DNA of 64,000 bases from Antedon mediterranea (taxonomy: Eukaryota; Animalia; Echinodermata): NCBI RefSeq assembly GCF_964355755.1, contig NC_092677.1, forward strand, positions 12,298,101 through 12,362,100. Direction: 5' to 3'. A program made the translations under genes and the position numbers. This document shows positions 13,501 through 57,307 of the stretch, one piece after another. The stretch's first letter is position 1; each line of letters starts with the position of its first letter. The notes under the pieces are model-generated. The model searched no databases, had not been told where the DNA came from, and was given only the letters and a program-made list of their open reading frames with translations.

Positions 13501-16500
13501 TTTTAGTAAATTACTTTAGTAAATTACTTTCAATAATCGATAATTATATTATAATTATGAATCATTCCTGATTCAAATGCAAAATGTGCAAAATAGATCA
13601 AAAACTATACTCGTTTTGTAGTTACGAATATGACTGGTGATATTCAACACGAATACGCTTACGACTATGAAATGGGGATCAGCTCAAAAGTTTCACAAAT
13701 GCGTGACGTATCCGTTGTCGTTATCGTATTCGTAAGGTTGCGAAACCTCCCTATTAATTTAAAGAATTTATTGAAATACAATTTCAAATTGAAAAAAAAT
13801 GTTGTTAATGAAATTTACTTGGGTCAAATATTATAACTTAAGCTCTGTCATCACAATCAAACTTAATGTGACAAAAAAATGTAATGTGCCCATGTATGGA
13901 AATGATGATATCATATCACTACAATATTTAAGCATATCACTACCATATTTGGGCACATCACACTTTTTTCAAACCAGTTTGATAGTGTAGACACACATTT
14001 TTTTGTCACATAAAGTTTGATAGTGTAGACAGCTTAATAGTGCATAAATATTTTGTTCTCAGAGTAAACTTAAGGATGATGGCAGAGTTCTTGAAGGAGT
14101 TAGGTGTAGTAGATGCTATCAATCTAGATGGTGGAGGATCGGCAACGTATGTGATTAATGGAACTGTTGTAGACTACCCAACAGACACATGGTAATTGTT
14201 AATAAACCCAGAAATTGTTTGTCAGCAATTATTATTCAACAAGGCAACTTTAAAAAATTAAAAAAATTAGCAAACTAGAAGTGCAGTGAGTGCTACGAGT
14301 AGATTTATAACATAACGTAGAATGTCAAACTGAATGTCTATATTAGAATGCTTCTTATTGGATAACAAAAAGACCCTTTTTTCATTTCATTTATTTTACG
14401 TCTCACATATAACAAAAAATAACAAACACTAGAGAGAGACAGGATTCCCAAAAGCGAATTAAATCAAACTATCAAGTGGATCTCCAAAGCATAACATCAT
14501 CCAACAATAAAATACAAAACGTGAAGATTAAACAGAACCAAACATCTATACAATAATTATCCTAGTAATTACCCTACATCTACGTATCAAATCAAAGTAA
14601 ACATTTATTTCCTTCAATTGCAGAAAATATAGAAACATAATCTTTAACAACGTTGAAACGTAATTATAAGGTTTAAAAAAGGAACAAATGAAAATAAAAT
14701 GTAACAAACAAATTGTTACTGTGCAGTGGACAAACAATAATTGATTTCACCGGCAGAGAGCGAAAGCCGTACACCTGCCTAGGTTGTCTTAGGCTAATGT
14801 TTTGTAGTTAAACAATGAACTTTCTGATCTTACAAGCAATGTAAGTGAGTTGACCAATCACAAGAGACAGTTTGGATGATCCATCCGGTTGTGATTGGTA
14901 AAATTAATTGTGGTGGGTTTGCATCTTTGTGGAAAACATTGTTGCGATTCATTCTTGTATTGTTATGTAACATAAAATGATATTTAACCATTATTAAACA
15001 TTTGTATTACTACAGTACCGATCGAGAATATAATTGTGCTCGTCAGGTTTCGACGATAATATGTGCTCATGAACCAGAATGCCAACCTGAGAATTGTAGT
15101 AACCATGGAGATTGTATACTAGGAACATGTCATTGTCATGACAACTGGAAAGGAGCAAGGTGTGATGAGTTGTTTTGTGGTAGTACTAATTGTGGAGAAC
15201 ATGGCAAATGTACAAATGGTGAGTTATTTCTATGTTTTGTGAATGTTTAATCTGTGATTGTATTTGCCTCATGAATTATTCATTGCGCATAATTATGTCC
15301 AAACAGTTGTACCACATTTGCAGTAGCTTGCTGGGGTTCACAACCAAAGAACAGCTCTACATATTTAGCTCACTGGGAAATGTTCTTGTAAATTCTCTTA
15401 CATAGATATTTAGGAACACTGGCTTGTTGACGTCCCAGCCTTGGGGTCACAAGTGAGTTATTGTGCATACAACCAAAGAACAGATCTATCACATTTAGCT
15501 CACTAAAAAGTCTTTAAAATAATGTTTTTTCTTGGGACATGGTGTTTAAGCACACTAGCTTGTTAATATCCTATTATTATTATTATTTTTTAGATGGCTG
15601 TGTATGTGAAGCTGGTTGGGAACCACCATTTTGTATATTTGTTTGCGCTATGGGTCACTATGGCGTCAACTGTGAAGGAACCTGCCAGTGTCAGAATGGA
15701 GCCATTTGTAATGTCAGCTCAGGAGCATGTAGCTGCCTTCCTGGCTACCGTGGTGTTTTCTGTGATGAAGGTAAACAAACTTTAATAATTTTTTTGTCCC
15801 ACAATAATTATAATAGTCATTTATTTTATAGCCCCTTGTTAGGCTGTTAATGCACTGTACAGAATTATTATTATTATTATTAATGAAGTAAATCAGAAAA
15901 TGGCAAATTGTTATATAAAAAAAAGTCTTTAGCTGCGTTTAAACAAAAGTAACACAGATTAATATTAGTGGACTAACTGTAGTATTATGGCAGAAAATTT
16001 GCACAAGCTCAGTAAATTATAGTAAATATTCTATGAGGAGTATCTTTTTATTACTTTGCAGTGTGTCCAGTTGGATTCTATGGCCAAGATTGCCTTGAGA
16101 CCTGTTACTGTCCTGGTCAATCCTGCTTTTGCCATCATGTGACCGGTAACTGTGATGTATCTAAGAATAATACAAACAGCATCTACCTTTTACAAAGTAA
16201 GTGTTTCAAAAAATCATCAGTAAAAATTACTCTTAATTAAGCTCTGTCTACACTATCAAAAAAGTGTGATATGGCCAAATATGGTAGTGATATGACATCA
16301 ACATGTCCATATATGGGCACATCACATTTTTTTTGGTCATATTTTGAGTGTAGACAGCGCTTTAGCAGAGTTGGTTTTTTGTTATTATTTGGTTAAAGTG
16401 TGTTACTTGGTAAATCAGGAGTTAGATTTTATTAAACACTATTATTTATGGACATTATCCAAATTAGGTAACCCTGTGATAACAAATATTTCAGCGCCTT

Positions 16501-26912: not shown

Positions 26913-28166
26913 GTTATTAGAGTATTATTAATTCCATTCAAATCAATTGTGTCATGCCTGAGTAGTTTTGTATAAAATGATTGAATACCAGCATTGGATT
27001 GGTATTATTATTATTATTATATCATATCAATAGATGTATGATGAATGGATATTATGTCAATACATTGTAATGAATGTGCTGCTAGCAAAATATAAATTCC
27101 ACTAATAAATAATCACTGTATTTTTCCACATCGTGCCTTAAATTACACTGCTATTTTATCATAGTAAATATCAACATTCCAAGTAAAATTATAGAAATGG
27201 CTCCTGTAGATCCAGGATCTATATGAAAACATAAGAGAATAATGTGGAGCAGGGAATTCAAATGAAGTAGACCTGGCTAGCGGGTGTCACAAAACCTAAG
27301 ACCACGAAAGCTAAGACCCCCTAAGACCTAAGATCACGAAAGCTAAGACCCAAGACCTAAGATTACAAATATTTATTTATTGATAAACATTGTTTAATGC
27401 AAAAAAATGATCAAGAAAATTATAATTATTTATTTAAATTTTTGAATCTGAATTTTTAATTGTTAAACATTTTAATCTAAATGATGACAATACTAATTCT
27501 AATACTCATATTATCTGGATGCGTAATTGTGTTTTTTTTTTTATTGTTTGTACTTTTTTGCAGACTATCTTTTTTCTTTGCTCTTCTCTATCAATTATTT
27601 GCAAATACGCAAGTAAAGTGTTCACAGTCTGATAAGCAACTGTGCGGTGCCCTTTGTGACTGAGTCATTGTTCCATTAGGATCTCCCACTCTTTTTTTCA
27701 TTGTCTAATGCTACCCTGGGAAGAACTTTTTGTGGAAGTGTAGTATTGCATGTCAGGCTATTTATAGATTCTGTAAACTTGACAGCTGGAATATGGGCTA
27801 CCCTGGGAAAAACCTCTTTATTTTTTTTTCTGTGAATGTCTAGGTCAGGTTATATATAGAACTGACACTGAAGGTGATCCTTGTTATGGACACTTTCAGT
27901 GTATTATGAAATAAAGATATTTCATACTATTTTTAAAAATACAGTACATTTAATAAAGGCTGTTTAAAAAGGTAGATCATTTTGTTTCAGGTTCTTATTT
28001 GATTTAATTATTGTGATACAATCATTAGGTACAAGATACCACTATGTTTTCCTTTTAAATACTATTTATATTTATTTTTCTCCGATTCTAGCTATTTTGG
28101 ATAAAAAACAAGCTATTCTTTTCAATTGTTTTATTGTTCTATCATAATAAAAGACAACATATCAAG

Positions 28167-30351
28167 ATGCTTAGTGGAATTGCAAGTTTTCTTTTCGGTA
28201 CCACCGATGGTGACGAGGTGTTGAACGCCCAGCAGATGGACCTAACTGAAGCCGATGATGAATGGGTTCTTGTTGACGTTACGAGTAAGTGTATTTTAAC
28301 CACCTTTATACTGACGCATAAAGTAAGCTATAAAAAGATTTCTCCACAGAAATTGAATAAATTGGGATTTAAAAAAAATTATATAGACTCGTTTCTGTTG
28401 GCAAGAAAATACCATTCTTTCGGTATTGAAATCTGTATTATCTTGCTTAAAACGAGCCATAACAAGTCAACTGTACGAGTTTTTTTCTATATAAAATAAT
28501 AAAAGCTGTTTTCACACAATTATTGTTCTGTTCAAATAAATATATAATTATAAATTATGCTGTATTCGATTCTGGAAAGCCCAATATTTTTGCCATTCAA
28601 GTACGAAATACTATGCTGGATGAATTTTGACAATGTTTAGTTGTTAAGGCCCATTTACACTAGGGCGATAACGATCGACGATAAATAGATAAATATGCAT
28701 TTTTCATAACTAAAACAAAAGAATTTTAAAAAGTTTCCATCCTAGAACTAGAGGATTATCATCTATGCTGCCTTTGATGAAAATAATATTTCCACACGTC
28801 CAATCAAATGACGTCATGATTAGTAAGAGCAATAATATCGTTACAATACAACGATTTTATTGTTTTCATTGATCATGACGTCATTTGATTGGTTTTTCAA
28901 AAATAATATTTTTATTAAATACAGCATATATGATTATCCTATAGTTCTAGAATGAAAAATGTTCTAATTTCTTTTGTTTTATCAAACAAAAATTTATGTT
29001 TATCTACAGTATTTATTGTCGATCGTTATTGCCCTGTGTAAATGGGCCTTTAGACTATGGGTCTCATTTGAATACAATACAATAGCCTGATGAAGGTCTA
29101 TAACAATCATTATACTAGCAGATGGGAGGGCTTGTTTACTTGGTGCCTTGCCAATTTTGAAATTGTAAACATCACAGAGACATAATAACAATAACAATGT
29201 TATCCATTTTCATCTAAAAATTCAATAAACAAAATACTAATAATAAAAGAAATTAGGTCAAATAAATGATAACAATACGGATATTATTAAAAGGGGATCT
29301 ATACTGCTAACAAGGTATCTATATAATAATAGACCTACTGCTATAAGTGAATTGATATATCTACTGTACTGTACCTCTTACCACTAGATCAAGCTCTGAT
29401 GTTACATAACAATTTCATCATACATACATATACAGTCAGTGGTTCAATAAATACACTTAAAGCAAATAATAATGCTAAGCAGATAACAAATTTTACCAGT
29501 TTTCAAACATAAATGTATTTAAAATTTTAATTTGGAAACTATGCATTTAAGCTTTGTGAATTCTAAATTAATAGCTTTTCATCAGCTTACAACAGACTCA
29601 TTGATTCCAATTTTCCCTCCAAACTGTTTTGTTTTGATCTTCATTGTTTCCTTGTTTAATCACGGTGACCCATTTTCAAACAGGTGGTTTTTTATTAATT
29701 TTTTTTTCTTGTAAGTCAAGGTTTAAGTTAATTCTTAGACCAGATGCAATGTTTACACTGTTCCTTGTTTGCCTAGTAGAAAAGTTTAAAATTAACAAAA
29801 TTATCTTTTTTTCAGACGTGAGAAGAAGTCCGAGAATTAGTCGAGATTCGTCACCTTCGAAAGAAAATCAAGGTTCCAAAGGTGGAAATACGGCGGATGC
29901 GATACCAATTCCTGTTGAGGAAAGTTGGTTTATGACGCCTCCACCATGTTTTAATGCGGGCTCACCGGGACATATAGCCACTAGCCCGATGGAAAATCTG
30001 TTAATTGAACATCCTAGTATGTCGGTGTACCACAGTTCAAGTTCACGTGAGGCGCACTGTCGTGTAGGAAACTCTCGTCAACCAATCCGCAAACATAAAC
30101 TCCGAGCAAGAACTGTCCACCAACCTAAAAAGGCGGCAGCAATTGCAAACCGCCTCGGTATTGAACAGTCCCACAGTGCAGCTGTGGTTCATGCTAGAAA
30201 CATAGAGAAAAAGCAATTTAGTAAATCTCTATCACGTTCAAAAGTCGAACGAGCGAATAAAGCCTATCATCAAGAATCAAATGGGAAGCGACGTCATTAT
30301 CGGAATAACAAACCGGGAAGACATACAAACGCTGTCTACAAACAGTGTTGA
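28167..30351 (+). CDS. TP53INP: Tumor protein p53-inducible nuclear protein (TP53INP1/2, DOR family) homolog, 2 coding exons, ~217 aa
   Basis: Exons 28167-28284 (MLSGIASFLFG...EADDEWVLVD, LIR motif) and 29816-30351 (EESWFMTPPPCF, SPMENLLIEHPSMSVY, basic C-terminus); phase-1 intron. Long AT-rich probable 3' UTR, AATAAA near 33260. Confidence 0.92.
28647..29049. mobile_element. Foldback Harbinger-like MITE (403 bp, TTA target duplication)
   Basis: TIR AGGCCCATTTACAC / GTGTAAATGGGCCT, inverted symmetry extending ~170 bp inward, TTA at 28644-28646 and 29050-29052. Confidence 0.88.
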
Positions 30352-39181: not shown

Positions 39182-41689
39182 TCAAGATTCTGAACTTGTT
39201 AATTTCTTACTTTCTAACATGCGAGCCTTGTTCATGAATCGCTGGACGCGATTGAAATCAACTTCTTCAAACCATTTCCCTTCCATTTTAAACGAAGATC
39301 CAACTATGATGCCATTGGCACATGAATATTCATGAAGGTTGTCCTCGGTAACACCAGAGCCAATCAAAACGGGTATATCAACAACATTTTGTACAGCTGA
39401 AGATGGGATGAGAAAAACAATTAAGACAAAAGCTGGTAAATCACACCTTAAGAAATAACCTATCCATATAACTATTTGATGCTTTGTTTTATTCTTTTTT
39501 ATTTTTTCTTTTATTTACCCAAAAATAAGTTATAAACATTGTAAACAACATAAATAAAACATATATCAAGGGAAGGGTTAAAAAAAACAACTAATCTAGT
39601 TCAGCCCCTAAACATTGAAGAATAAATAGAAAAATAAATGAAAAAGGGCAACCTTTCTAAACTTAATATACATTCTATTGACATACCTTTTAGTTCTTCA
39701 ACACTAGCTGGATCTCCAGTAGCTCCACCTGTGATGACAACTCCATCACTGAGAAAGAATTCTGCAGCTTTGGCTGTATCAGTGATTTCAACATCACAAG
39801 TTAAAGCATGAGAACTGCAGATTTAAAAACACAAATGATTTGAAAGTTGAAAGATTTGAAAATCTTAATATTTAATTTAAAAAAAAACACATTTAAAAAC
39901 ACAATGGAAAAGTCAGAATACATCAAGTGATGTACTACATGTAAAATGATAAATACCTATGTTTTTTCTTTATATCAGTAAATATTTGTATATTTTCAGC
40001 TCCAATCTGTTTTCTATATCGTAAAAGTTCGCCAGCACAAGCATTCATCATCCCTTCATCAGCTATGTGAGCAAATACAAACCCCTCTGCTCGTATAAAA
40101 TCAAGACCTATAAAATAATTGTAAAAAAAATTTCTTTTTGAACAACCAAAAATTAATGCAAGCGAACTTACAGAACGTTTCGAAAAACCTATCTGGTTTC
40201 ATTCTCAACTGGCGTTTCATCGTCTAGCGTTGTTAATCCCATGACGACGATGAGTTGGTATAGCGCCATCGTCGTCATGGGATTAACAACGCTAGACGAT
40301 GAAACGCCAGTTGAGAATGAAACCAGATAGGTTTTTCGAAACGTTCTGTAAGTTCGCTTACATTAATTTTTGGTTGTTCAAAAAGAAATTTTATTTAATA
40401 CCTATTCTACAACCAGATGAAATTCTTCCAACATATAAAATAATAGTTAAACAATTTATAAGTTATAAGTATTCAAGTATAAACCCTATTTTTTCCCACG
40501 CATTGTACACTGCAGTTTATTAACAAAGGTTTTCTGATTTAATTTAAAAAAATTACTTTTATATCATACGCATCAAACACCAAGTAACTCGCCAATTACA
40601 GGATGGTTAAACTATTCTATAATTTATTGTGCTTATAAACCATGGAGTATGGTGTTGATAGGGAGGTTGGTGACAACCCTAGCACTAGGTCAGGATAGAA
40701 CCCAGGACCCTGGGATTGGAAGGCAAGCATGTTAACCACCAAGATACAGCTGCTCCACGACTTTTTTCAGAGTTTATATTTTCATATTTGAAACTTATTA
40801 GTGCATCCTCTGATTGATAAATATTTACTATACACAAATACAAATTTATAATTTTTATTTTTACCTGTTGCTAATGCTATTGCTAAAGCTTGCTTGTTTG
40901 CTCCTGATAAAACCTGTATTCCTAAAGGAATATCTGGACAATCCTTGCGGATCTGATAACATGTTGTCGTCATCGATGCCGTTATTTCATGGCTCACTTC
41001 ATTGGAATGCATGTAAGGAAGGTCATGCATATTCTCAATTAGGATGCCATCCTGAAACAAATTATTATTACCAATAATCCAATATAAATTAATTTTTATT
41101 TTTATCAAAAAAATATTGGGTAACAAAGTATATTCATACATAAAAGTACCCACAATTCCCAGTTTCTTGTAGCCTTCTGCTTCTGTACAAGCAATTTCAG
41201 TAATGTCTTCTACTTTTAAGCGATTTCGTGGAGTTCCTACAAATCACAAAACAAAGAAAAAAAACACAAATATACAATAATTAATACTCAATTTATAATT
41301 ATTTAACCGCTGCGCAGCAGTGAAGTGTTATTTAAAGTTTAGATGCGAAAGTACATTAGCGCCATAGAATGTGCACCGTCACGTCACAAAAACGTGATTA
41401 CCCTCTAGGCCCTAGAACTCAGATCCGCACTGTCTATCACAGGCGAATGAGCCTGGCCCATGCCATATGCATATAATATTAATAATAGGGCCTACCTAGA
41501 TAGGCCTACTAGGCCCTATAAATTGAAACCAATATTTATTATTTAAATTAAAACATATTTTATTTAAAAAATGTACAGTTCATTATTTTAATATTTAATA
41601 AACTAACCCGGTAGAGATTTCAAATGTATCATTCCAATTATTGCAGTATTACCCTTTTTGAAAAGTCGTGTAAATTTCTGCAGAGCCAT
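39182..41689 (-). CDS. BtpA/SgcQ-family TIM-barrel protein (C. elegans F13E9.13-like), 6 exons, ~281 aa
   Basis: Phase-consistent exons 41689-41608, 41236-41154, 41051-40865, 40107-39957, 39814-39687, 39396-39182. Motifs IIGMIHLKSLPGTP, DGILIENMHDLPY, FIRAEGFVFAHIADEG, DIKKKHSSHA, EFFLSDGVVITGGATG, LIGSGVT, GIIVGSSFK. Confidence 0.92.
40127..40392. repeat. Long near-perfect inverted repeat (126-bp arms, 14-nt loop) in intron 3 of the BtpA-family gene
   Basis: Arm 1 40127-40252, loop AGTTGGTATAGCGC, arm 2 40267-40392; one mismatch seen (AATGCAAG vs CTTACATT). Confidence 0.95.
40630..40757 (-). mobile_element. tRNA-derived SINE fragment (tRNA-Gly-like head)
   Basis: Minus strand GGAGCAGCTGTATCTTGGTGGTTAACATGCTTGCCTTCCAATCCCAGGGTCCTGGGTTCTATCCTGACC: degenerate A and B boxes, no intact cloverleaf. 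Confidence 0.55.
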
Positions 41690-41928: not shown

Positions 41929-42760
41929 ATGAATATTCAAAAGAGATACATGAAACATGGCAGTCATACTGAAAATTATTTCAACATACATGATATTTTA
42001 GCAAGTCATGAAAAAATTCCTTGTGTATATGAAGTCCCAATTTTGAGGCTTGGATTCTTGGATGCCAGCACAGATAGTCCTGATATCCCACCAAATACCA
42101 AGATGGAACTCCCTTACTGGCTAGCCTCAAGCCTTCAAACTAGAAAGAAGAAAATTGTCAGTATTGAGCTTCCGAAGCAGTATCGTGAAGGACATCGAGA
42201 CATATTACGGGCAGACGCTAATGTGGTTGACTTGCATAAAATGGGACCATATTATTATGCATTTGGAAGTAAACTGATGAATTTTGATCACGTTGAAGTT
42301 GATGATATTGGTAAAAGCCTAACACATGTATGTAGAATCTGACATTGCTGTTTAATCTACTAATGAATAAAAAAACTATTGTTAATTTGACAGCTTGCCC
42401 TGGTATAACAACAAGCCAGGTGCAACTTTTAGTTATTTAAATTTTATATTTATTACTGTACGTAATTTGTTCTATGTTACATAAATTTTACTTATCAATA
42501 ACATTTTTTCTTTTTAATTTCAGACTTTTTCAGCTCGTTTCCGAAAAATAATGGATTCATCTCTCAATTGTTACAAGGGCGACACAACAAAATTAAGAAG
42601 TAAATTAGATAACAATGAGAGAATGCTGTTCACTGCTGGACAACTAAGTTTACATGATTACCAAAAATGGGAACAACGCAGCACCGACAAGATACAAGCT
42701 TCGGAGATGGTTACTAACCATCGCAAGAGAAAGCGTGCTGTAATGGAGCAAAATAACTGA
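41929..42760 (+). CDS. GINS3: DNA replication complex GINS subunit PSF3, 2 exons, ~211 aa
   Basis: Exons 41929-42327 and 42524-42760, phase 0. YFNIHDILASHEKIPC, LGFLD, KMELPYWLA, ADANVVDLHKMGPYYYAFG, TFSARFRKIMDSSLN, C-terminal HRKRKR. Confidence 0.95.
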
Positions 42761-43399: not shown

Positions 43400-43460
43400 T
43401 GTAAAAGCGCCCTCTGGTGAAGTAAGCGCCGTTTTTATAACAAGATGGCTGCTTCCTTGC
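43400..43460 (+). promoter_or_regulatory. Probable promoter/TSS of the RPUSD2 locus
   Basis: CTCF-like GCGCCCTCTGGTG (~43407-43419) and YY1-like CAAGATGGCTGC (43441-43452). Confidence 0.5.
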
Positions 43461-43605
43461 TTATGAAAACATGGTGATGAAAAGTTGATTGTATTTGTTC
43501 AATATTAATGTATTTTTTAGAATTTTATATTTATAAAACCTGTAATAAGATTCTAGATTTGATTTACTGTCTTTTCAAACGTGTATAGTAACGTTAACTA
43601 ACTGT

Positions 43606-46600
43606 ATGAGGGCATTAAGTGTAGGCCTCACCAATTTGTCTGCACTGCAAGTTAAAACATCTAAGCTCGACAAACGCCTTGCACCACTAGAAGCTATTGG
43701 CGTGATTGACAGTATTATTCGGCCTAACAGTAACACTAAACTTGTATCAAGCGGCTCTAGCATGTCGACTACTGAGGAGTGTGAAGATACATTGGAAATG
43801 AGTTCACCAGATACTAGTAAAGTAGGAAAGAAATCTAAAAAGGTTTGTTTTAATAATATTAACAATAATATTTTTTAAAAAGACCATTTATTTTTGTTTT
43901 GTTGATTTATAATAATTAATTAATATTTGTTTTGACCCCTTACAATTGATGCCAGCCTATTAATAAAAACTAATGTACATGATATAGTACTGTATTATTA
44001 GTAATAGTAGGCCCTTGTTTTTTTTTTCTTTATTTCATTCAAACATTTTTACCAAATACAGTACAAGTCTGCTCTAGAGCTAGGTGAGGGCTCTTTGTCT
44101 TCAGCTTAAAATATGAAACAAAAATACTTTTAAATAATGCTAATATAGTATTACTGTAAATTCTCGCATTAAGTCGTACGCACGAATGTATTGATTTGAT
44201 TTTTTTAATCGGTGGAATCGCTACGCAGACAAAGTTAATATGACAATTTTCGATATTTACACTTTTGTGGATTGATGTAAAAGAGAGAAGTACTGTACAG
44301 GTAGCTGCTACCCTGAATGCTCAACATCTAATCAACATACTACAGCGTCAATCTATAATGATTATGCACAGTAAGACATTATTCTGTACAGTATATTCAA
44401 ATATTTTTCATTTATACGGTACTTCAAAAAATGCGAGAATTTATGGTATGTGAGTATATTTTTCTATTAATTTTAATGTACTGTAGTATACAAACAGCAG
44501 TATCTAAATCTTAGTTTCCTATGCATGATTTGTGTAGTCACTTTTGATTGGCTGACCAATCATACTTAGACTGATACAATGAGTTACTTATAAAATGTTA
44601 AATTTCTAGCAAGGTTTTTCTTTTTCAAACTTGATTACTGTATTGTAATAATTCAGTCTAGGTGTTAATACTGTAGAAAACATGTACTTTTTTTTCTCTA
44701 TAAAAGGAAAAGAGATCAGAAGCCTACAATTGTGGTTTGTGCAACGAGATATGTGAAAATGAAGCAATCTTATGTGATACATGTCACAATTTTTACCACA
44801 GCAAGTGTGAAAATATAACGCCGAGTTTAAAATTACAGTTGAGTTATTTGATGCAAGAGTTTGTTTGCAGCAATTGTTGCCAAAAGGATAACTATGACTT
44901 TGAAGCTGCCATCTCTCGACTTTCCCAGTCTGCGGTGATCGGACAGTTAGATTCTGGGGTACAAATGGAAAAAATTCTATTGAGAGACAAACCAGAATTT
45001 AATGTACAACACACCTTGCAGAAAGGTAAATATGTAATCGATAGAGTTGCAAGAAGTATTCTAAAAAAATATGCAAAACATATAACATCTTTTCCTGTGG
45101 CTATTGAACGAGATGGAAACTGTTTGTTTAGTGCCTTATCAGTGGCTGTACATGGTAATGCCACAAAAGCTGCAGAATTACGCACGCGGACAGCTATAGA
45201 AATGGTTTCGCATCGTAAGTTTTATCAGAGTGTGCACGTTAGATCGGGAATACTACTTGTCTCTCCCGACTTAGAAGAAGCGTGTTTAGACTGTGCGCAA
45301 AACGGCTGTTACTCCTCGGCTTGGACAATCCATGCTGCGTCTTCTGTCCTAGGCCGCCCGATAAGGTCCATCTATCCACCCGTGAATGGTCTTCACGATC
45401 GATGCTATGAGATAATGGATCGTACGTTTTCCCCACGAATCTTGATAGACAGTAGCGATGTAACGATTATGTGGAGCGGTGAGAATCCTTCTGGTAGAAA
45501 GGCTTGGATTCCTAATCATTTTGTTCCGCTGCTGCGGTTAGAGAAAGATGATCCCATTGTTGAAAACACTGATCTTCAATATACTGCTGTAAGTTTCAAT
45601 GAAATTGTCCCCAGAAAAATGAAACATGATAAATTAATATCAAACAAATAGAAATAATAAATAAATAAATTTGGACTTTTAAGCGCATAATGCATAATAT
45701 AAATAAAAGTAATCCATGAAATAAATAATATAAAATAGAAATTAAAAATAGACATTTTAAACCCATAATTCCCTTTTAAAAGATACAAATAATTTTCATT
45801 AAGTTCCCTCTTATTAATAATGGAATATTCCAAGAAAAGTCTGATTATAAGTTTCCTAGACCATTAAATATTAAATATAATATAGAATTGTATTTGTTAC
45901 ATATGTGATATGTGTATTATAGAAGTCTATATTATTATTATTATTTTTTTTTTTAACTATTATTTTTATAGCCTTTAAAGTAAGCACAGTAATTGAATTT
46001 AAAAAAAATTTTTTTTTTTAAAGGTATATACAATGGTGAATAATGAAGTAGTGGTATCAACGGACAACAGTGGCATTTCATTGGAACTTGATCCTGCTAT
46101 ACTATATGGTAAGGATATTGTGAACACTAGTGTTTTCTAAATGAGTGATCATCGATTGTATTTCACTACCTAAACTATATTAGTCCATAAATTTATTCAA
46201 GAAATATGGTGTGACCACCACCACCAAGTTTTTCCCATGTTCATGAAGAGTTTGACATCAAAAGAACAAAAAAATGAGCTCCTTAGTCCTCTGGTAATAA
46301 AAATAAAGCTCTGTCATTTACTAGTTTGACAACAAAAATGTAATGTGCCCAAATATTGTAGTGATATTCCCAAATAGGGTAGTGCTATGACATCATGTCC
46401 ATATATGAGCACATCACATTTTTTTGTCACAAAAAGTTTGATAGTGTAGACAGAGCTTTAGGTTTCTCTAGAGTTGACTCTATTTTGACCAGATTTTCTG
46501 TATTGAATATATAAGTGCATTCTGTATTGAATATATAAGTGCATTCTGTATTGAAGACACCAAGCTTGATGATGTACTACTGCTGTATATTGCATAATGG

Positions 46601-49600
46601 TAAAGAATATACCTGTGCCATATCACTTATGACCTTGGGCAAGATACTTTACCCTCATATCTCGTCCTTCGGATGACACATAAAGCTGTTGATCCTGTGT
46701 GCCTAGAATAGTAACTAATGATCGATTTAGTTAACTTTGACTCAAGAAGATAACCTTTTTTTTTCTTTTTTTTTACACAGAAGAGTTACCTGTGGTAGGG
46801 ACGCCCATTGATTGTCCAAGTGACAATCCGCTGAAGAGTCCAGAACGCTTCTTGACACCAAACGAAATTTTCAAAATCATGCTCTCTGAAAAACCAACTA
46901 GTACCTCCATTCCTAACGGTATCAAACATAACGTTTACTTTCTTCTTGACAACAGCGTAAATATTTCCCGTTGGGCAAACGGTCAGCGATCGCAGTACAA
47001 AGACGATTGCAACTGGTCCACTAAAACATCTTCTAACCGTCACTACTACGTATTGGTAGATGATCATTTGAGCTATGTAGATAAAAAGGACGGCTTATTC
47101 TGTAAAGACGTTAATCATAAGCGTATACCTATTGAACCGCAACCTGAAGAAGACAGTATTATTTTGTTCAGGCGCTACTATGCTACGCACAAAGATTTGT
47201 TGTCTTTCAAAAAGAAAATTTCTGTTGTGCTTGAGTGCCCTGGTCGTTTAGACCACCTTAAATCACTTTCAGTAATAGAATATGTAGGTCCGTGGCCAAC
47301 AAACTACCAAACAAACTACCCAACAATGACAAGTTCCCCGAAAAAACGTAAGATAATAAAAAAGCCAAATGAAACATTTGATGAACAAGCAAATGCTGTT
47401 CAAATGATCCAATGAATATGGTAATTATTAGTAAGTTAATCTAAAATTAACTAGACAGTCTTTGCTCAATTTTCCAGGAAGTTGTGTTTATATATTAATG
47501 TATTATACAGATTTTAAGTTTAGTACTGTGAACAATGTGACTGCTGATCCAAATTTGAAGTTTTTATTTTGAACCTGGTATAGAAATATGTCGGTTTTTA
47601 TTTTTTTTTTTATTAGTTTTTATGAAATTAAAGCGATAACCAGTTTGTATCTAATTTTAGGGATAACCATTTTTTTTATGCAATATTTCACTTAGAAGCT
47701 CCTCACAGCCTTAGTAGCTCCTCACAGCCTTAGTCTAGAGGAGCCTCTGCAACATATAACATATGAGCTTAGCACCAGATAAACCAGTTTAATAATAGGG
47801 ATAACCAGCTTTTATGAAATTGATAAAGGAATCTTTTTCAAGTTATTATTAGTTCAACTTGTTTCAAACTATATATAATCCACATTGCCATTTATCTGGT
47901 AACTTAAAAAATACTAATTCCCTACAATTGTTTATGTTTTGTAAAAATAATGCATGTATATATTAATTTTTTTATTTTTATCAGAATCCATAATACAAAA
48001 GATCACAGAAGAAAAACAAAAATATCAATCCGCTCACAATGTATGTTGGGATTTATAGTGGGCCGCTAAAACTATTAGAATCAACTTATTTTTAACCGTT
48101 AAGATCGCAATAGGACCATAGAGTATTTATTTTTACATTAAATGTAGTTTGTGACCGTATATTAGATCTAAAAAACGTAGGGAATGGGACTTTAAAGGAA
48201 AAATTCCTATCTAAGTGAATACAATTAAGGGAAATATGATTGGTGAATACGGTGGCTGATATCTAATGTAAATGTTGCTACATTGATACAGAGACATCGT
48301 TTAAGCTTGGTTGCCACTAGGATGCAACGAAAAAAGCACCCATTAGGCTGCAACACAGGGATGTAAGCGCACGTAATTTGACCAATCGCAAGTGATGGTT
48401 ATTCAAACTGTTTCTTGTCATTGGTCAACTTGATTGCATTGCATCCTACCACAAGTACTTTCATTATTTTGTGGACTCTGTGATGTACTGTATAAAAAAA
48501 TGTCCAGTATGTGTGTAAAATAATATTTTAGTAAAATTAATACAATTCTTAAAAGTTATTTTGTAATTATTCAAGATATGTATGGTTAAATAAATAGTTC
48601 CTTTTAAGGAAAGATTCATTAAAGCTAACATGTATTTTGTATAGTTTATTTTTCACAGTATAACGGCGTAACAGCCATAAATGCTCACTGGCTAAATCCA
48701 GGGGCCTCTGAGCTTACGGGGACCTCTGAACAGACATTAAAATGTGTTGAAAAAGGCTATAAAAGGCCCAAGGCCTCCACGTTGGAAACTTGGTGTCACT
48801 AAACCAGCCTTAGGCCTCCGCATTACAGCTATGAGCACTCACTGGCTAAACCTAGGGGCCCCAGAGCTCGATCAGTCCAATGCAACTACCCAGCGTTGGA
48901 AGATGCCTTAGAAGTGCTAAACCAGGGGCCTTTACCCCATGTGATATACCACTGCTCTGCGTTATACCACTGGACGAAAGAAGTTTGAATAAAATTCTTC
49001 CAAGTAGATTATATTGTATTGCTTATTACTGTAGCATTTGTCACAATTTCTGGATTCTTGTTTCATAAAGTTGCTTTTGTCATTTTAGGCGAACAAGATT
49101 AGACCAATAAAAATTGAGAAATTTAGGAATGACTCGAGATTTGATGAAACAAGCTATTACTTTAAAGATGGTAAGGATAGATAAATTAAAATTGTTCTTC
49201 TTTACCTAATACAGTAGTAAAAAAGTAATAATAATAATTGGTCATAAATTATACGTTTTAGTAAATCATATGGCAGTGACATATCCAGGAATTGGATATA
49301 AATAGGTGGTGAGCTCAGGGCATAAACATTATAGAATTAAGTGCCAAAAGTAATCAATATGTCTCAATATTGGTCTTCATCAAATTCCACACAAACCCTG
49401 AATTATATCAATTATATTACAGGTCTACGATATGTTAAGCCATACAGTTTTGTTTTCCAATGTCATATCAAAGGAAGATGGTTTGGAAAGAAAATTATTG
49501 ATGTCTGCAAAAAAGAATTCCGGGCTGAAGCACCAGATTTCTACGTAAGAAGAGTTATTTTTTATTTCTTTTTTTTGTCTTTACATTCTGCATTGAATGT

Positions 49601-52600
49601 ATTAAATTGAGCTATGTTTTTAAGTTCAATTTCTTTAGTTCTGTAGGTTGTACAGAAATGTTGTGTACCAAGGCTTGGAATGACCCTTTACAAATGTCAA
49701 GTGATAATGTGACCGCTTTCTTTCAAAATCTAATTTTTCAAAAATCTTTTTTTTTTGTATAGGAAAAATCAATAGCTGTCGGTCTTCTAAAAATCAATGG
49801 CAAACGTGTCAAACATGGCAGGACTTTATGGAACAATGAACTTCTAACTTCACGTGTCCACCGCCATGAGCCGCCAGTGTCTGGTGAACCAATCAGAATC
49901 ATTCACAGTGATGATGATGTAGTGGTTGTTGATAAGCCAGCATCCATTCCGGTAGGTAGAAACATGGTATTAGGAGCTTACGCTTTGTGTTTCTCAGTGT
50001 TGAAATCAAAGTCTAATATAATGATACAGTACCAGTAATTTTTAAAGTTAACTTTTAAACAAGTGTATAAAAGCTCTGTCTACACTATCAAACTTTATGT
50101 GACAACAAAAATGTGATGTGCCATATATGGACATTATCACTACCATATTTAAGCATATCACTACCATATTTGGGCACATCACACTATTTTTGCTTAAGAC
50201 TGCCTTTTCCTTGTTGTATCGTAAGATTTAGTATTCTTTGTTTATCTTTAGGTTCATCCCTGTGGAAAGTATAGGCACAATACACTAGTCTTCATCCTTG
50301 GCAAGGAATATGGCTTTACAGGCCTACACAGTAAGTACACCTTGTAATAGCTAGTTTACATGCTTGCTTGGTAATCATAATGTCTCTTAAATCTTTCCTC
50401 AGTATATGACACATGCATGAACAACGAATTCTTTATGCAATTAAATGTAATTTCTTGTTTTTTAAATTGAATTTTATTTCTGTCTTTAGCTATTCACCGG
50501 CTGGATAGACTAACATCCGGTTTGCTGATTTTTGCAAGGTGAGTGATCATTGCGTTGACAAAAAGGGTACTTCATCTTGGTATCTACACCTCTATACTAT
50601 ACTAATACCTCTAAAGTAATGCGTATTGTAATAGTAGTCTTCCATTCAGTCAAGTCATTAAGTAATTGCGCTGAAATTGATCTGAAAGACCTGCCAGTTG
50701 CAAGGGTGGATCAAGTGGTTACCCGCGGTTGTGGCGGTACTGTATTTGCATTTCCTATGTTGATTCATTATTGGTTTATACATTTATTGGGATTTTAATC
50801 CTCTTTTTTACCTTTTTTAGAACAGCAGAGGTGTCAAAGAAATTGGATGCCTATGTGCGAGATAGAGAAGTAGAAAAAAAATACTTATGCAAGGTTAAAG
50901 GTCAATTTCCAAGGTAATGTATGTAATAATGCATTAGGTATTTTTAGTAAAAAGCAGCAGGCTACTTTTACTTTTGATACGTTTTAGACACCCCTATTTA
51001 GGAACACTTTATAGGGTCATGAAGGTGTCCCCTTAATATAAGTTCTACTAAAACTGTAATTGTGTTTTTCAGTGATCCTATCATTTGTGAAGAACCAATA
51101 CAAGTCGTTTCACACAAGATTGGCGTATGTCGAGTTAGTCCACAGGGGAAAACATGTAAGACGACGTTCCAAAGTCTAAGTTATGATGGCGAGACAAGCA
51201 TTGTACAATGTAAGAATTGGTAATTATTATATTTGATATATACATATTCCATTGTTCCGGACATGGAAATTATTATATTTGATATATACATATTCCATTG
51301 TTCCGGACATGGAAATTATTATATTTGATATATACATTTTCCATTGTTCCGGACATGGAAATTATTATATTTGATATATACATTTTCCATTGTTCCGGAC
51401 ATGGAAATTATTATATTTGATATATACATATTTCATTGTTCCGGACATGGAAATTATTATATTTGATATGCAATACACTCTTGTATTAAATTAAACTAAT
51501 GGTTGGAATTTGTTTACAGGTGTACCACATACAGGTAGGATGCATCAAATCCGAGTCCATCTGCAGTATTTGGGATACCCTATCACTAACGACCCTCTGT
51601 ACAACAACCCTGTATGGGGTACAGAATTTGGCAAACATGATTCAGCCACACGTATTACAGATGAAGAGGTGAGTCCTTTTATTTTATCCAACAGATTTGC
51701 ACTTACAAACCTGGAGTTGAAATTTAAATTTATGGATGTTCACTAAATTATTTGTTAACATACAGTTTAGCCTCTTTAAGGGATACCTCTAAGACCGAAA
51801 GGTGTTTCTCCCAAAGCACTACTATAATTGAATTGTATATAATCCTTTATTTTAGTTGATTCAGAGGCTCTTGGTACAACGGGATGAGGAACTGTTAGAA
51901 AGATTAGTAGAGGATAATCACCAATCTTTCCTTGATCCAGACGAAAAAGATAATGTAAAAGGTTTGCGAAAGAGGACAGATGAAACTGAAAGAGATGAAA
52001 GTAATGAAACTTTACCAAAGAAGTTTAAATCTTATGAAAGTGTTCAGGACAACAAAGAAAGTGATAATATGGAGATTATAAAGATTAAAGAGATTATTTC
52101 TGAAGAAAGAGACTATTCAACAAACTCAAATTTGTCAAATATAGAAACAACTAAAATTAAGGTTGACAATTCTGAAATAATTGATTTTAATAAAGTTCAA
52201 TGTTATCAGGAGATTAAGGGGATTGAAGGTTCAGAAGGGATTAAAAGTTCAGAAGGGATTAAAAGTTCAGAAGGGATTGATTGTAAAGCTGAATCCTCTA
52301 TAGATATCCCAGAAACATCCACATCTTCCTTTAATCTTACACAGCAGATTAAGTGTGATGAGGTTATTAAGGAAGCAGAATGTGGGGATACTAAAAGTGG
52401 GATTAACTTGATTAGCACAACATCTGAAAAGATTATCTCTGAAAGTAAAGATACTGCGTCTACAGTTGATGGATCAGATTGTGTTTCAGAGAAAGCTGAT
52501 GGATGTGATGCTTTTTTACCACCAGAGGTTGCAATGTTGAGGGATGGGGAAACGGAGGAGGATAGATTGAACCGGATTGTTATGACACTTTGTAGAGATT

Positions 52601-52876
52601 GTAAGGTGAAATACAGAGATCCTATAGATAGTGAGTTGAGAATCTATCTACATGCCCTAAGATACAAGGTAAGATCATATTATCTACTTAGCAATATTTC
52701 ACATTTTGTATGGGTCGAACCTCTTGTTACGTTTTAAAGGATAGTACTGTATCTAATAAATATTGTTATAGTGGTGTTAACATTTTTTATTATATTTGCA
52801 GGGACCAGATTTCGATTACAGTACAGAAGTTCCAAGTTGGGCACAAGAACATCTTGATAGATGTCAAAATAAATGA
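43606..52876 (+). CDS. RPUSD2: RluA-family RNA pseudouridine synthase (RPUSD2-like), 11 exons, ~674 aa
   Basis: Phase-consistent exons 43606-43842, 49089-49170, 49423-49544, 49763-49951, 50252-50330, 50490-50538, 50821-50913, 51073-51209, 51520-51668, 51856-52668, 52802-52876. Motifs [38 protein letters not shown], catalytic [35 protein letters not shown]...[18 protein letters not shown]. The start codon is uncertain (43606 or 43762). Confidence 0.92.
44154..44446. mobile_element. pogo-like MITE, TA target duplication
   Basis: TIR CTGTAAATTCTCGCATT / AATGCGAGAATTTATGG with TA on both sides. Confidence 0.65.
44707..47415 (+). CDS. Nested PHD-finger + vertnin-type OTU-like + transposase-like protein; 3 exons inside RPUSD2 intron 1, ~612 aa with the shared exon 43606-43842
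   Basis: Exons 44707-45588 (phase 0/0), 46024-46108 (0/1) and 46781-47415 join into one open frame. PHD C..C...C..C...H..C...C..C; OTU-like [40 protein letters not shown]; last exon FRRYYATHK...FKKKIS...SVIEYVG resembles N-terminal regions of invertebrate DNA transposases (from memory, unverified). Confidence 0.8.
46307..46457. mobile_element. Harbinger-like MITE family A
   Basis: AGCTCTGTC ... TTTGATAGTGTAGACAGAGCT with family core. Confidence 0.8.
46620..46710 (+). mobile_element. SINE central-domain remnant (CORE/Meta-like)
   Basis: GACCTTGGGCAAGATACTTTACCCTC followed by CGTCCTTCGGATGACACATAAAGCTG. Confidence 0.45.
48656..48972. mobile_element. Tandem dimer of the hAT MITE family
   Basis: Two head-to-tail copies of GCTCACTGGCTAAA..AGGGGCC...CTAAACCAG, ending GTTATACCACTG. 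Confidence 0.7.
50072..50190. mobile_element. Harbinger-like MITE family A (3'-truncated)
   Basis: AGCTCTGTCTACACTATCAAACTTTATGTGAC... family core. Confidence 0.78.
51222..51469. repeat. Minisatellite, 46-bp unit x ~5.4, RPUSD2 intron 8
   Basis: AATTATTATATTTGATATATACATWTTCCATTGTTCCGGACATGGA repeated. Confidence 0.95.
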
Positions 52877-53964
52877 AACTATGTTCTCGAATATAGGCCT
52901 ACATCAAATCATTAAATTCAAAATAGAAAACGTATGTTTTTGTTGGCTGATTCATTCGTATCAAAATGGCTAATATGTAAATCTTGAAGCAATCAAATCA
53001 TAGAAAATTGTGTATCCAGTATTTTGGGAGGCAGGGCATAGGATCAGTATTTGTTTCACTATAAAACAAGTAATATTACAAAAAACGCCGCTCATCTCAC
53101 GATACCTACCGTCTCCACATGCATCTCAATATTCATCATTTCTCATTTTCCCCAGACGTACTTTGTGGTGTGCGCATGCTCAGTCCTTGTTTCCAAATAC
53201 CAATTTTTTTCAGCCGTAGTAAACTATAAGCTACCGCATGGTAACTGTTTCCTAATGTTTCCGTTCTCTTGAATATAACTGCCTAAAGGAGTGGCGCAAA
53301 TATAATATAAAAATACGACATTTTCTTTTAGCTTTGGGTTGACCTTTCCCCCTGATGATGGGAGGAGGAGCACTAAGTGACACCTCTATAAGTTCCTCAA
53401 ATGTCCGTGCCTTTTCCGCATTTTTGTTTCAGATTCGCTTCGGCAACTTTCTATTTTATCTTTTATGAAGATAAATGAATATCGTAAGGATTCGGTATCA
53501 ACACGAGTATTCTAGTGCCTACTACTATTATCTCAATGGCCTGTGTAGATACAAAGATGTAAGCAGCTCACAAACAAGATTAATATGCATAATTAAAACA
53601 GGCTATTTATAGTTTATTGACTTGGCTTTATGTGTTTAGCAATCACCCGTCGTTATATCAAATTCTTTTATTTAATAAAGAAACATTGCTAATGTACCGC
53701 GTGTGATTAGCGTGTAACCTTCGGGCGACATGCGGGCTCTTCTTTTATAACATAATACCACAATGGTAACAAGTCGACAATCCAAGCTTCTTTCCTCGGA
53801 AAATACAGTATACCGGTACCTACTATTTCGGTTGTTGTGAGTAATACTGCTAAATAAAAAATGGACTTTGTTCTTTACTAGTTTCGCAATAGTAGCCTAT
53901 TGTGAAATGTTTATATTATACTATCTCCGGTTGCAGTAAGAACCATTCCAGTCGAACTTCCAAG

Positions 53965-55152
53965 ATGTCGAAAACCGTTCAAGATCAAGCCATTTCTTTT
54001 GCTAAAGATTTAGCGGCAGGGGGAATTGCTGCTGCTATATCAAAGACAGTGGTAGCACCCATTGAGAGAGTAAAGCTTCTTCTACAGGTAATTGCATTAT
54101 AATATGACCTGAAATGTCGTATATGGGTATATGAATTGACAGTTTATTTATAGAACTATTACAGTGTAGGCCTAGATATATACTACGTTAACGTTAGTAA
54201 ATTAGTGAATTATAAATTGGAAAAGCATAATGAATTCTGGGGACTACAACATGTGTTGTACTGTATACGATACAATATCCACCGCCGATTCTACATCATC
54301 AAAATCATCTTCTCTCCTTAAAAACTATTACCGTACTGTAGTATACAAAAACATATTATTTATGTTACTTGTTTTTAGCTTCAAGCGGCCTCAAAGCAAA
54401 TTGCTGCTGACCAACAATACAAAGGCATCGTCGATTGTTTTTCACGTGTTACTAAAGAGCAAGGATTTTTCTCATTATGGAGAGGTAACCTGACAAACGT
54501 CATCAGATACTTTCCAACACAAGCTCTCAATTTCGCCTTCAAAGACAAATACAAGCAGATTTTCCTTGGAGGTGTTGATAAGAACAAGCAATTCTTTAAG
54601 TTTTTCTTGGGTAACTTGGCCTCCGGTGGAGCAGCCGGTGGCACCTCTCTTGTTTTTGTATACCCATTGGACTTTGCTCGTACTCGTTTGGCAACCGACG
54701 TGGGAAAAGGGTCTGCCCGTCAATTCACCGGATTGGGAAACTGCCTTGCTTCAATTTACAGATCTGATGGATACTTGGGTCTTTACAGAGGCTTCTTTAC
54801 GTCTTTACAAGGCATCATTATCTACCGTGCAGCTTTCTTCGGGTTGTATGATACGGCTAAAGGATCTATTCCGTACAAGGTCAACATATTTTACTCGTGG
54901 GTCATCGCTCAATCTGTTGCCACGGCTTCAGGAATCATCTCGTATCCATTTGATACCGTCAGACGTCGTATGATGATGCAGTCTGGCCGCAAAGATAAAA
55001 TGTACAAGAATACATTGGATTGCTGGAAGAAGATTGCTCAACAAGAAGGCTCAACAGCTTTCTTTAAGGGTGCTTTTACTAACCTGATGCGTAGTACTGG
55101 AGGTGCGATTGTATTGGTCCTTTACGATGAAATCAAAGCTCTTATAGTTTAG
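53965..55152 (+). CDS. ANT: Mitochondrial ADP/ATP carrier (SLC25A4/5/6/31 family), 2 coding exons, 298 aa
   Basis: Exons 53965-54087 and 54379-55152, phase 0. [56 protein letters not shown] signature. Probable 5' UTR intron 53484-53936. Confidence 0.96.
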
Positions 55153-56221: not shown

Positions 56222-57307
56222 ATGTCGACAACAGTACAAGACCAGGCAGTTTCTTTTGCGAAAGATTCGGTGGCAGGAGGAATTGCTGCCGCTATATCAA
56301 AGACGGTGATAGCACCTATTGATAGAGTTAAGCTTCTTCTGCAGGTAATTACAGATTGGAAACTGACATTTTGAATATTTATAATTATTGATATTTAATA
56401 GTTTAGTCAGTAAACGGATTCGAACATTTTACCCGTTAGTAAAGTAACGGATCCAACATTGTGAAATAAGTTCAAATTTCCCTAAGATGGTGCGTATTGT
56501 TAATTACTCATATTGTATATTTTATTTTTAGCTTCAGGCGGCCTCAGAGCAAATTGCCACCAACCAACAATACAAAGGTATCGTCGATTGTTTTTCACGT
56601 GTTACTAAGGATCAAGGGTTTTTCTCATTATATGGAGAGGTAACCTGACAAACGTCATCAGATACTTCCCAACACAAGCTCTCAATTTCGCCTTCAAAGA
56701 CAAATACAAGCAGATTTTCATTGGAGGTGTTGATAAGAATAAGCAATTCTTTAAGTTTTTTTTGGGTAACTTGGCCTCTGGTGGAGCAGCTGGTGGTACA
56801 TCTCTAGTTTTTGTATACCCATTGGACTTTGCTCGTACTCGTTTAGCAACCGATGTCGGAAAAGAGTCTGGCCGTCAATTCACCGGATTGGGAAACTGCC
56901 TTGCTTCAATTTACAGATCCGATGGATACTTGGGTCTTTACAGAGGTTTTTCTGCGTCTTTTCAATGCATGATTATCTACCGTGCAGCTTACTTTGGATT
57001 GTATGATACGGCTAAAGGAGCTATTCCGTATAAGGGTAACATCTTTAACAAATGGATCATCGCTCAATCTACCGTCATTACTTCAGGAATCATGGCGTAC
57101 CCCTTCGACACGGTTCGACGTCGTATGATGATGCAGTCTGGTCGCAAAGATAAAATGTACAAGAATACATTGCATTGCTGGAAGAAGACTGCTCAACAAG
57201 AAGGCTCAACAGCTTTCTATAAAGGTGCATTTACCAACATTATGCGCAGTACTGGAGGTGCGATTGTATTGGTCCTTTAAGATGAAATCAAAGCTCTTAT
57301 AGTTTAA
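56222..57307 (+). pseudogene. ANT: Tandem ADP/ATP carrier duplicate, pseudogenised
   Basis: Exons 56222-56344 and 56532-57307 with the same intron position; 2-bp TA insertion at ~56631 (CTCATTATATGG vs CTCATTATGG) shifts the frame, and TAC>TAA at 57278-57280 truncates the last 9 codons. Confidence 0.88.

Follow-up and report, generated by a model that had tools for sequence, protein, structure and literature searches.

The DNA analyzed here, 64,000 nucleotides (nt) from the echinoderm Antedon mediterranea, a feather star (contig NC_092677.1; below, the window, with positions counted from its first letter), carries a gene which we take to be the pseudouridine synthase gene RPUSD2. Inside its first intron and on the same strand lies a three-exon open frame of apparent transposon origin that makes use of the RPUSD2 first exon (Table 1). 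The four exons of the fusion model, i.e., shared exon 1 and the three nested exons, have GT/AG ends and give, once joined, 1,839 nt encoding 612 amino acids (aa) and a stop, with zero internal stops. Joined to position 49089 in phase 0, exon 1 opens an intact 11-exon, 674-aa frame with GT-AG at every intron and an HRLD motif, presumably the catalytic motif of the RluA family; Pfam PseudoU_synth_2 was matched by one of these exons alone, weakly (E 0.0098). The exon coordinates and phase-0 joins of a first-pass annotation of this DNA were all right. It had also described the nested frame as lacking an ATG of its own ahead of its PHD finger, and indeed no in-frame ATG was found between the upstream stop and the finger, the ATG at 44682 being out of frame. 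RPUSD2 exon 10 (51856-52668) is 813 nt long and contains a long acidic low-complexity insert with an 18-bp tandem repeat at 52219-52278.

The exon 1 product is the sole part common to the fusion protein and RPUSD2. This leader has a basic end and contains Met1, Met53, and Met65, the start context of Met53 being stronger than that of Met1, which is weak; a Pfam search found no domain in it. Two of the five upstream ATGs in the 5' leader are in frame, and every one of the five reaches a stop before 43606. The 612-aa model is already in NCBI, without a functional label: record XP_071958450.1 is the identical protein, named "uncharacterized protein isoform X2" of A. mediterranea. Isoform X1 of this locus is presumably RPUSD2; an exon-1 query of the protein collection returned the self match only (1 of 72 candidates) and not the RPUSD2 isoform protein.

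Table 1. Features of the shared-exon locus (window positions)
Feature	Position	Strand	Remark
5' leader of shared first exon, five upstream ATGs	43438..43605	+	X1 contig; transcription from at least 43438
Shared coding exon 1	43606..43842	+	79 aa; phase-0 donor
Nested exon 2	44707..45588	+	294 aa; PHD finger and vertnin-type OTU domain
PHD finger	44731-44877	+	in nested exon 2
OTU catalytic codons	Cys218 45121-45123; His350 45517-45519	+	in nested exon 2
Nested exon 3	46024..46108	+	85 nt, linker; X1 contig piece 46028-46108, loose end running into 46781
MITE-like high-copy repeat, inverted arms	46320..46462	unspecified	in last intron of nested gene
Nested terminal exon	46781..47415	+	stop 47413-47415
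Predicted WRKY-GCM1/CG-1-like domain	about 46849-47289	+	aa 425-571; inside nested terminal exon
12-bp tandem duplication, in frame	47298..47326	+	point where clear transposase homology stops; family HGN motif absent
Degenerate tail of terminal exon	PKKRK basic cluster 47341-47355	+	
3' untranslated region (UTR) of fusion isoform	47416..48034	+	at least to 48034; without DDE remnant
RPUSD2 exons 2-11	49089..52876	+	674 aa together with exon 1
RPUSD2 exons 2-6	49089-49170, 49423-49544, 49763-49951, 50252-50330, 50490-50538	+	
RPUSD2 exons 7-11	50821-50913, 51073-51209, 51520-51668, 51856-52668, 52802-52876	+	

The use of exon 1 was examined in read contigs from four of five listed sequencing runs, none of the five being recorded as RNA; X2 to X4 represent one sample and X1 a different sample and study. 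X1 was classed as RNA-type by the program, and its contigs skip GT-AG introns, which the contigs of X2 to X4 cover continuously. The expression evidence comes from this one RNA-type run of one study, and the joints were read on a repeat-free stretch in X1 only. Exon 1 is covered by an X1 contig at 43438-43843 (depth 17.2). A 1,589-nt X1 contig (depth 15.8) carries exon-1 letters, skips 864 nt bounded by GT and AG to 44707, runs on to 45591, resumes at 46028-46108, and then continues into 46781, whereas a 2,039-nt X1 contig (depth 23.3) carries the same 30 exon-1 letters followed by 49090 onward and later RPUSD2 exons. Contigs from DNA runs X2 and X4 cross both exon boundaries unbroken (43339/43358-45693), which rules out processed DNA copies as the source of the joined forms in that sample. 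The junctions 43842>44707 and 43842>49089, which the first-pass annotation had proposed, are therefore both present in spliced contigs: exon 1 is spliced to two different acceptors, and the expressed fusion isoform is real. The exon-1 side of each joint measures 24 to 30 letters, below the 31-letter bridging rule; such short overlaps are what a branch in a 31-mer graph would be expected to give. The 45588>46024 joint was read from contig pieces adjoining a skipped repeat, and positions 47374-47386 lie outside the listed X1 contigs.

Two further proposals concerning the transcripts fared less well. A poly(A) site after the ATTAAA at 47627 is not supported, since an X1 contig runs unbroken from 47387 to 48034 at depth 20, compared to 3.8-4.2 in the intronic X1 contigs (44163-44416 and 44433-44614). 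A choice between two splice forms was observed in X1, but a regulated "switch" between them is not supported, and contig depth cannot rank the two isoforms. As an alternative to the shared exon, a separate start inside intron 1 is not supported, as the nested contig opens with exon-1 letters and the intronic contigs have a depth of about 4; such a start may yield a minor form. Read-through at the 45588 donor, giving a PHD-OTU-only form ending at 45651, was likewise set aside, X1 cover being zero at 45615-45994, an absence that is no proof. An AATAAA inside the last coding exon (47355-47386 region) stands just before the stop of an X1 contig at 47373; a minor form may be cleaved there, or coverage may simply be interrupted. 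Motifs at about 43406-43419 and 43441-43452 (within 43405-43455), which we take to be CTCF-like and YY1-like, respectively, lie on either side of the RNA contig's 5' end. Within exon 1, a 3-nt in-frame insertion allele after 43651 is carried by X1 and X3.

The nested exons encode a PHD finger, an OTU domain, and a predicted DNA-binding domain (DBD), in this order. All eight PHD ligands are present (C88, C91, C102, C105, H110, C113, C133, and C136), and the finger was matched by PF00628 at 24.5 bits (cut-off 24) and with a Z score of 9.0 to the Pygo PHD finger. PF02338 matched the OTU domain at 26.9 bits (cut-off 23.3); its motifs D215-G-N-C218 and N349-H350-F-V-P-L are intact, so that the catalytic Cys and His motifs and the complete PHD finger noted previously both stand. 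A Pfam search of the nested protein (P0001) returned these two domains only, using a Pfam copy from which the Vertnin_mid model was possibly missing. The PHD-OTU structure model has a pLDDT of 91. Its OTU part matched VCPIP1, TRABID, and OTUD3 (VIA; Z 13.7, 13.2, and 13.2; root-mean-square deviation [rmsd] 3.8, 4.5, and 3.3 over 185, 181, and 136 residues) as well as A20, with a Z span of 13.7 to 12.6 over the four proteins. It also matched the chordate Vertnin cluster with a TM score of 0.84 over 176 residues in the PF29258 part, with predicted models on both sides (Atlas). The relation to vertnin suggested by the first-pass annotation thus holds for the OTU subtype, but the putative donor is a Mutator/MULE transposase. 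Orthology to vertnin is rejected on the basis of architecture, which in vertnin comprises Vertnin_mid and a helix-turn-helix (HTH) domain and in the Antedon protein a PHD finger and a WRKY-GCM1-like domain.

For the last nested exon, the Pfam search gave no match, CG-1 included, and the structure model (pLDDT 86) had no Foldseek match at an E of ≤0.001. Its VIA matches were SSR4 (Z 8.0; rmsd 3.6 over 109 residues), GCM-DNA (6.8; 3.9 over 97), WOPR (6.1), NAC (5.7), and WRKY33 (5.7), among which Z values under 8 can reflect common arrangements. Its top Atlas matches were CG-1 clusters (0.85-0.89, at lead level), and the homolog P0045 exceeds the Pfam CG-1 cut-off (27.4 versus 23.5). We assume that WOPR and SSR4 are kin of the WRKY-GCM1 fold. 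From these models, the exon is predicted to encode a WRKY-GCM1/CG-1-like DNA-binding fold, a domain missed by the earlier annotation, in which homology and structure searches of the 612-aa product had been expected to recover the PHD and OTU domains that we confirm. GCM, NAM, and WRKY have one common fold, and WRKY-GCM1 domains originate in MULE transposases, according to the available part of PMC1702500.

The lack of Foldseek matches and the moderate Z values weigh against the function proposed below, and so does the state of the domain itself. It retains 24 of 33 family-conserved columns (0.73, the median being 0.88; equally low values occur in 2 of 57 homologs, the missing tail being counted), has lost by deletion the Gly of DDCG (Gly in 59 of 65), and has no HGN motif. 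Of the metal ligands, Cys478 is present and the HGN His is absent; several DDE-less homolog domains likewise end before HGN. In the PHD finger, residue 108 is Phe, as opposed to Trp in 11 of 11 homologs, at what we take to be a methyl-H3K4 aromatic-cage position. Because the DBD has drifted and Phe108 replaces Trp, we place less trust in DNA and histone binding than in the OTU assignment. Of the earlier label "putative chromatin-reading protease," the protease part is in keeping with the intact Cys and His, and the chromatin-reading part stays putative. Basic clusters at the exon junction and at aa 589-593 suggest nuclear import of the fusion protein.

That the nested gene stems from a transposon, as had been proposed, is borne out by its relatives. 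The nearest of these are 30-48% identical to the nested protein, and the full-length ones add MULE and Transposase_mut domains. Over the first ~575 aa of the fusion protein, the sequence is colinear, at 30-40% identity, with OTU+MULE+Transposase_mut proteins (P0002 of Pinctada imbricata, 964 aa, and P0006), which exceed the Pfam cut-offs for MULE or Transposase_mut. Colinearity extends up to EYVGPWP (aa 568-574) and is followed by a weakly similar tail to aa 612. In extent, the nested frame corresponds to ~60% of an animal Mutator (MULE) transposase, beginning with the N-terminus. Its domain order is that of animal PHD-OTU-(PF27108)-MULE DDE elements (P0002, P0006, P0031/P0032, and L003), which differ from the Antedon cassette in having their own Met, a single unbroken open reading frame (ORF), the HGN motif, and the DDE domain, and in at least one case (L004) long terminal inverted repeats (TIRs). 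Among 80 related metagenome loci, L003 contains an uninterrupted PHD-OTU-DBD-DDE ORF (345-3401, ~1,018 aa), and L004, one of seven loci examined, has 151-nt inverted ends, 98% alike, at 1-151 and 4696-4846 around a frameshifted PHD-OTU-DBD.

The remainder of such an element was not detected around the cassette. A tblastn search of the window with nine homologs found no DDE remnant, with significant E values at the PHD-OTU and DBD parts only. No TIR pair flanking the cassette emerged, the best cross-arm match having an E of 0.18 over 12-22 nt, and a comparison of the L004 TIR with the window gave nothing below an E of 0.05; no target-site duplication (TSD) was found for the cassette. DNA contigs revealed no near-identical copy (long and unbranched; depth 49-58 over the nested exons versus ~50 in the neighbors, 92% likeness), in a test that reaches near-identical copies in the DNA runs and beyond which diverged copies lie. 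These results agree with the earlier statement that no TIRs or DDE domain are visible.

Comparison with the homologs also suggests how the cassette came to depend on exon 1. An initiator Met lies 4-34 residues ahead of the first PHD Cys in 10 of 11 homologs, and among 80 loci, each of the three whose PHD pattern is complete starts at an ATG of its own, 4-15 codons upstream. In Antedon, the acceptor AAG is located 9 codons before this Cys, and it likely arose at or near the lost start codon. Of 19 loci in which both motifs occur, 16 have the OTU domain and DBD in a single ORF with 216-567 nt between them (the other three are broken, at 218-342 nt); in Antedon, they are about 1,380 nt apart and separated by two introns, one of them with a high-copy repeat. 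Because related loci keep both domains in one ORF and one intron holds this repeat, the two nested introns are likely later gains. In a quick tree of 75 of 167 DBD rows, the Antedon domain stands beside a Holothuria domain with unstarred support of 85, and therefore no donor is inferred.

The first-pass annotation favored domestication over a recent insertion. The missing ends and DDE domain, the gained introns, and the open frame are in line with this claim, whereas no ortholog was found in word-based protein searches; we consider domestication likely. Selection on the fusion protein appears fairly probable. Under neutral simulation with 5% substitution, the nested frame of 1,602 nt remained open in 2.6% of cases; adding indels lowered this to 0 of 2,000. 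In a first count (32 substitution rows minus 6 in high-copy repeats, plus 7 of 12 indel rows, one of them in an excluded repeat), the nested coding sequence had 2 variants (F432F and G556A) over 1,602 nt, the host coding sequence 3 over 850 nt, and non-coding DNA 27 over 3,988 nt (p 0.004). No variant is listed in exon 44707-45588. The polymorphism deficit in the nested exons is borderline. Both samples carry the cassette, with alleles that differ between them.

Several observations weigh against selection. When divergence was set to 2% and indels were left out, 24% of the neutral runs kept the frame open; the simulation rests on an assumed age. A strict count of substitutions, from which repeats, poly-T, low-depth, and adjacent sites had been excluded, gave 2 versus 16 in 3,846 nt (p 0.066; exon 44707-45588 alone, p 0.037); the variant sites are linked, and six further indel rows fall outside the count. 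Two X4 contigs spanning the nested exons contain 7 and 4 gap letters, not all placeable. Word-based protein searches detected no ortholog, with best non-self identities of 43% (29 matches among 1,311 candidates) and 48% (29 among 526); a 50%-clustered search (560 matches, best 150 examined) would merge close orthologs into the query protein, so that no absence can be inferred from it. Finally, the CpG observed/expected ratio is 0.92-0.99 in the nested exons, compared to 0.27-0.62 in RPUSD2 exons and 0.21-0.26 in the nested introns and 3' UTR, and the undepleted CpG may indicate a young insertion.

A tolerated young relic, i.e., a recent truncated MULE insertion exonized by chance, transcribed behind a housekeeping promoter, and open for lack of time, would account for the lack of a detected ortholog, the high exonic CpG, the p value of 0.066, and the 24% survival of the frame, and equally for a drifted DBD without HGN. 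We nevertheless regard it as unlikely: TIR, TSD, DDE remnant, and near-identical copy are all absent, the two CpG-poor introns do not occur in related elements and one of them holds a later repeat, different alleles of the cassette are found in two samples, and all PHD ligands and OTU catalytic motifs are intact.

We favor, with moderate confidence, the interpretation that a MULE PHD-OTU-WRKY/GCM1 fragment serves as an alternative terminal cassette on RPUSD2 exon 1 and that its protein is likely selected and is predicted to act as a nuclear OTU isopeptidase tethered to DNA or chromatin. This nuclear isopeptidase role appears quite probable if the protein is indeed under selection. A MULE would have inserted in sense orientation into RPUSD2 intron 1 and lost its ends and 3' half as well as its start codon, the acceptor now standing at the position of the homologs' initiator Met; two introns would have been gained in the variable OTU-to-DBD linker. 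The host would contribute promoter, start codon, and basic leader. The WRKY-GCM1-like domain and the PHD finger may position the protein on DNA or chromatin, where the Cys218/His350 OTU domain might cleave ubiquitin or a ubiquitin-like tag in the manner of a deubiquitinase. Any single transcript would yield either the fusion protein or the tRNA pseudouridine synthase, never both. The earlier notion of one first exon with two unrelated products, in which a transposon fragment uses a host promoter and N-terminus, finds support in the two splice forms of X1.

It is conceivable that the DDE-less protein instead attaches to the ends of MULE/MITE (miniature inverted-repeat transposable element) copies, its own or related ones, so as to block or silence them, and that the OTU domain acts there. 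The retained part is what would bind element ends, the catalytic part is gone, and the window is rich in short inverted-repeat elements. We judge a role in transposon control improbable, considering that the DNA runs show no near-identical parental family and that the DBD, whose binding is predicted only, is the most drifted part. Very improbable is targeting of the fusion protein by its leader to mitochondria, exclusively or in part, with the OTU domain acting there without the DNA-binding part. Available portions of two papers report that human RPUSD2 makes pseudouridine 31/32 in tRNAs (PMC12716993, PMC13022450), modifies mitochondrial tRNAs, and carries predicted N-terminal targeting signals on two isoforms (PMC13022450, PMC12716993), and an uncharged/basic stretch of exon 1 precedes Met53; however, the hydrophobic moment (0.17-0.27) and net charge (+2 to +3) of the first windows, the weaker start context of Met1 than of Met53, and the basic clusters at the junction and aa 589-593 argue against it. 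Equally remote is selection at the RNA level, with the cassette as a premature-termination device that tunes RPUSD2 dose and an incidental protein: the isoforms are mutually exclusive and both present in one RNA run, but neither an open frame of 534 codons nor three in-frame exons nor intact catalytic motifs would be required for attenuation.

Domains related to that of the Antedon cassette appear in other protein contexts in database protein models of Holothuria, Cherax, Macrobrachium, and Mytilus. The closest DBD relatives are 40-45% identical and include proteins of Holothuria leucospilota and Cherax quadricarinatus. In H. leucospilota (P0206/P0047/P0207; KAJ8047875.1 and 444-aa Logan members), an N-terminus named Sequestosome-1, with PB1 and a weak ZZ domain, is followed by a CG-1-like transposase domain 45% identical to the Antedon domain, which is likely an independent capture. 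A lola-like BTB locus of C. quadricarinatus (P0051/P0210/P0212 versus P0213/P0214) has several C-termini: P0051 and P0214 have the first 316 aa (BTB) in common and continue with a CG-1-like and an HTH-like domain, respectively. Three or four tandem copies of the domain occur in Macrobrachium (P0043, P0046/P0204) and in the Mytilus P0045 cluster; these are candidate domesticated DNA-binding proteins, and no MULE family match was found in the two that were scanned (P0043 and P0045). The vertnin-type OTU subtype was also observed in Rotaria proteins P0009, P0011, and P0012 together with PF14214/PF20209, which we take to be Helitron-type, and it travels in more than one transposon class.

It is tempting to speculate, although we hold this to be doubtful, that a MULE family of marine invertebrates with PHD, vertnin-type OTU, and CG-1-like domains recurrently donates terminal exons, as to RPUSD2, to SQSTM1-like PB1 in H. 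leucospilota, and to lola-like BTB in C. quadricarinatus, and that the Antedon product corresponds to a catalytically live vertnin: a deubiquitinase with sequence-specific DNA binding, acquired in one piece from a transposon and traded by splicing against tRNA pseudouridylation at positions 31/32.

The proposed mechanism is that of known host-transposase fusions by alternative splicing; the Antedon case differs in its derivation from a MULE, the lack of DDE, the three exons, the occurrence in an echinoderm, and a putative effector supplied by the transposon. In KRABINER/SETMAR-type fusions, transposase exons are likewise joined to upstream host exons via an acceptor immediately 5' of the transposase ORF, with persistence of the parental transcript as in most young fusions (available part of bioRxiv 10.1101/2020.05.07.082677). 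The fusions described in that part of the study are vertebrate, and the worked example combines a host KRAB effector with a mariner transposase, whereas in Antedon a MULE has been captured in an echinoderm, the host gives promoter and 79-aa leader, and the putative effector (OTU) comes from the transposon. "Mutator" and "MULE" are absent from the main text of bioRxiv 10.1101/2020.05.07.082677.

The earlier analogy with CSB-PGBD3 is supported: in both cases, a DNA transposon in a host intron provides the locus with an alternative 3' terminal unit, and the two kinds of mRNA are both produced. In CSB-PGBD3, the piggyBac ORF is complete, lies in one exon, retains Met, TIRs, and TSD of its own, and has been conserved for 43 million years (PMC2268245, available part); the Antedon cassette is, by contrast, a DDE-less fragment in three exons without ends or Met, for which no ortholog was found in the searches described above. 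Vertnin has the same OTU subtype (TM 0.84, predicted models). Sections of two papers describe vertnin as nuclear with a transposase-like HTH (PMC3024977) and human vertnin as an inactive OTU homolog without catalytic site (PMC10318531); Vertnin_mid and HTH there contrast with PHD and WRKY-GCM1-like domains in Antedon, in which Cys218 and His350 are present. According to the available part of PMC1702500, mod(mdg4)-type loci combine a constant N-terminus with exchangeable terminal exons bearing a MULE-derived WRKY-GCM1-fold domain, and MULE-derived WRKY-GCM1 transcription factors exemplify recruitment of DDE-less fragments, resembling Antedon in both respects. The constant part of mod(mdg4) is POZ/BTB with like-for-like DNA-binding alternatives, whereas the alternative in Antedon is an unrelated enzyme and the cassette adds a PHD finger and a protease. 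In the literature searched, we found no description of the locus or of PHD-OTU-CG-1-like MULEs, although supplements, Repbase, the Phantom paper, and subscription papers may hold one; "OTU" is absent from the main text, supplements not included, of PMC6446971 and PMC12062965.

In Antedon, every folded domain comes from the transposon, which appears to contribute reader, protease, and DNA-binding domain in one unit; promoter and leader are all that the host lends. If the protein is active, it would offer a tractable, enzymatically intact model of the vertnin OTU subtype, and the locus would, if true, tie this subtype and a CG-1/CAMTA-like domain to one MULE family. It could further show how a housekeeping gene tolerates ceding part of its output to a new gene, although the fusion may be confined to one lineage.

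Directly upstream of the shared exon and on the same strand, a GINS3/PSF3 gene is located at 41932-42760 (PSF3_N, E 3e-16). The high-copy repeat with inverted arms at 46320-46462 recurs at 50070-50192 and in about eight more places, with a depth of more than 10,000 times baseline in the DNA runs. Exons at 11000-15850, 28092-30351, and 39182-41243 are presumably NAGPA-like, TP53INP/DOR-type, and BtpA-family-like, the last on the minus strand, and broken endonuclease/reverse-transcriptase frames at 560-2753 presumably belong to a retroelement of the LINE (long interspersed nuclear element) type. Two tandem genes, which we take to be ADP/ATP translocase-like, are found at 53896-55152 and about 56300-57280; the second is out of step at its start, has an early stop, and may be a pseudogene.

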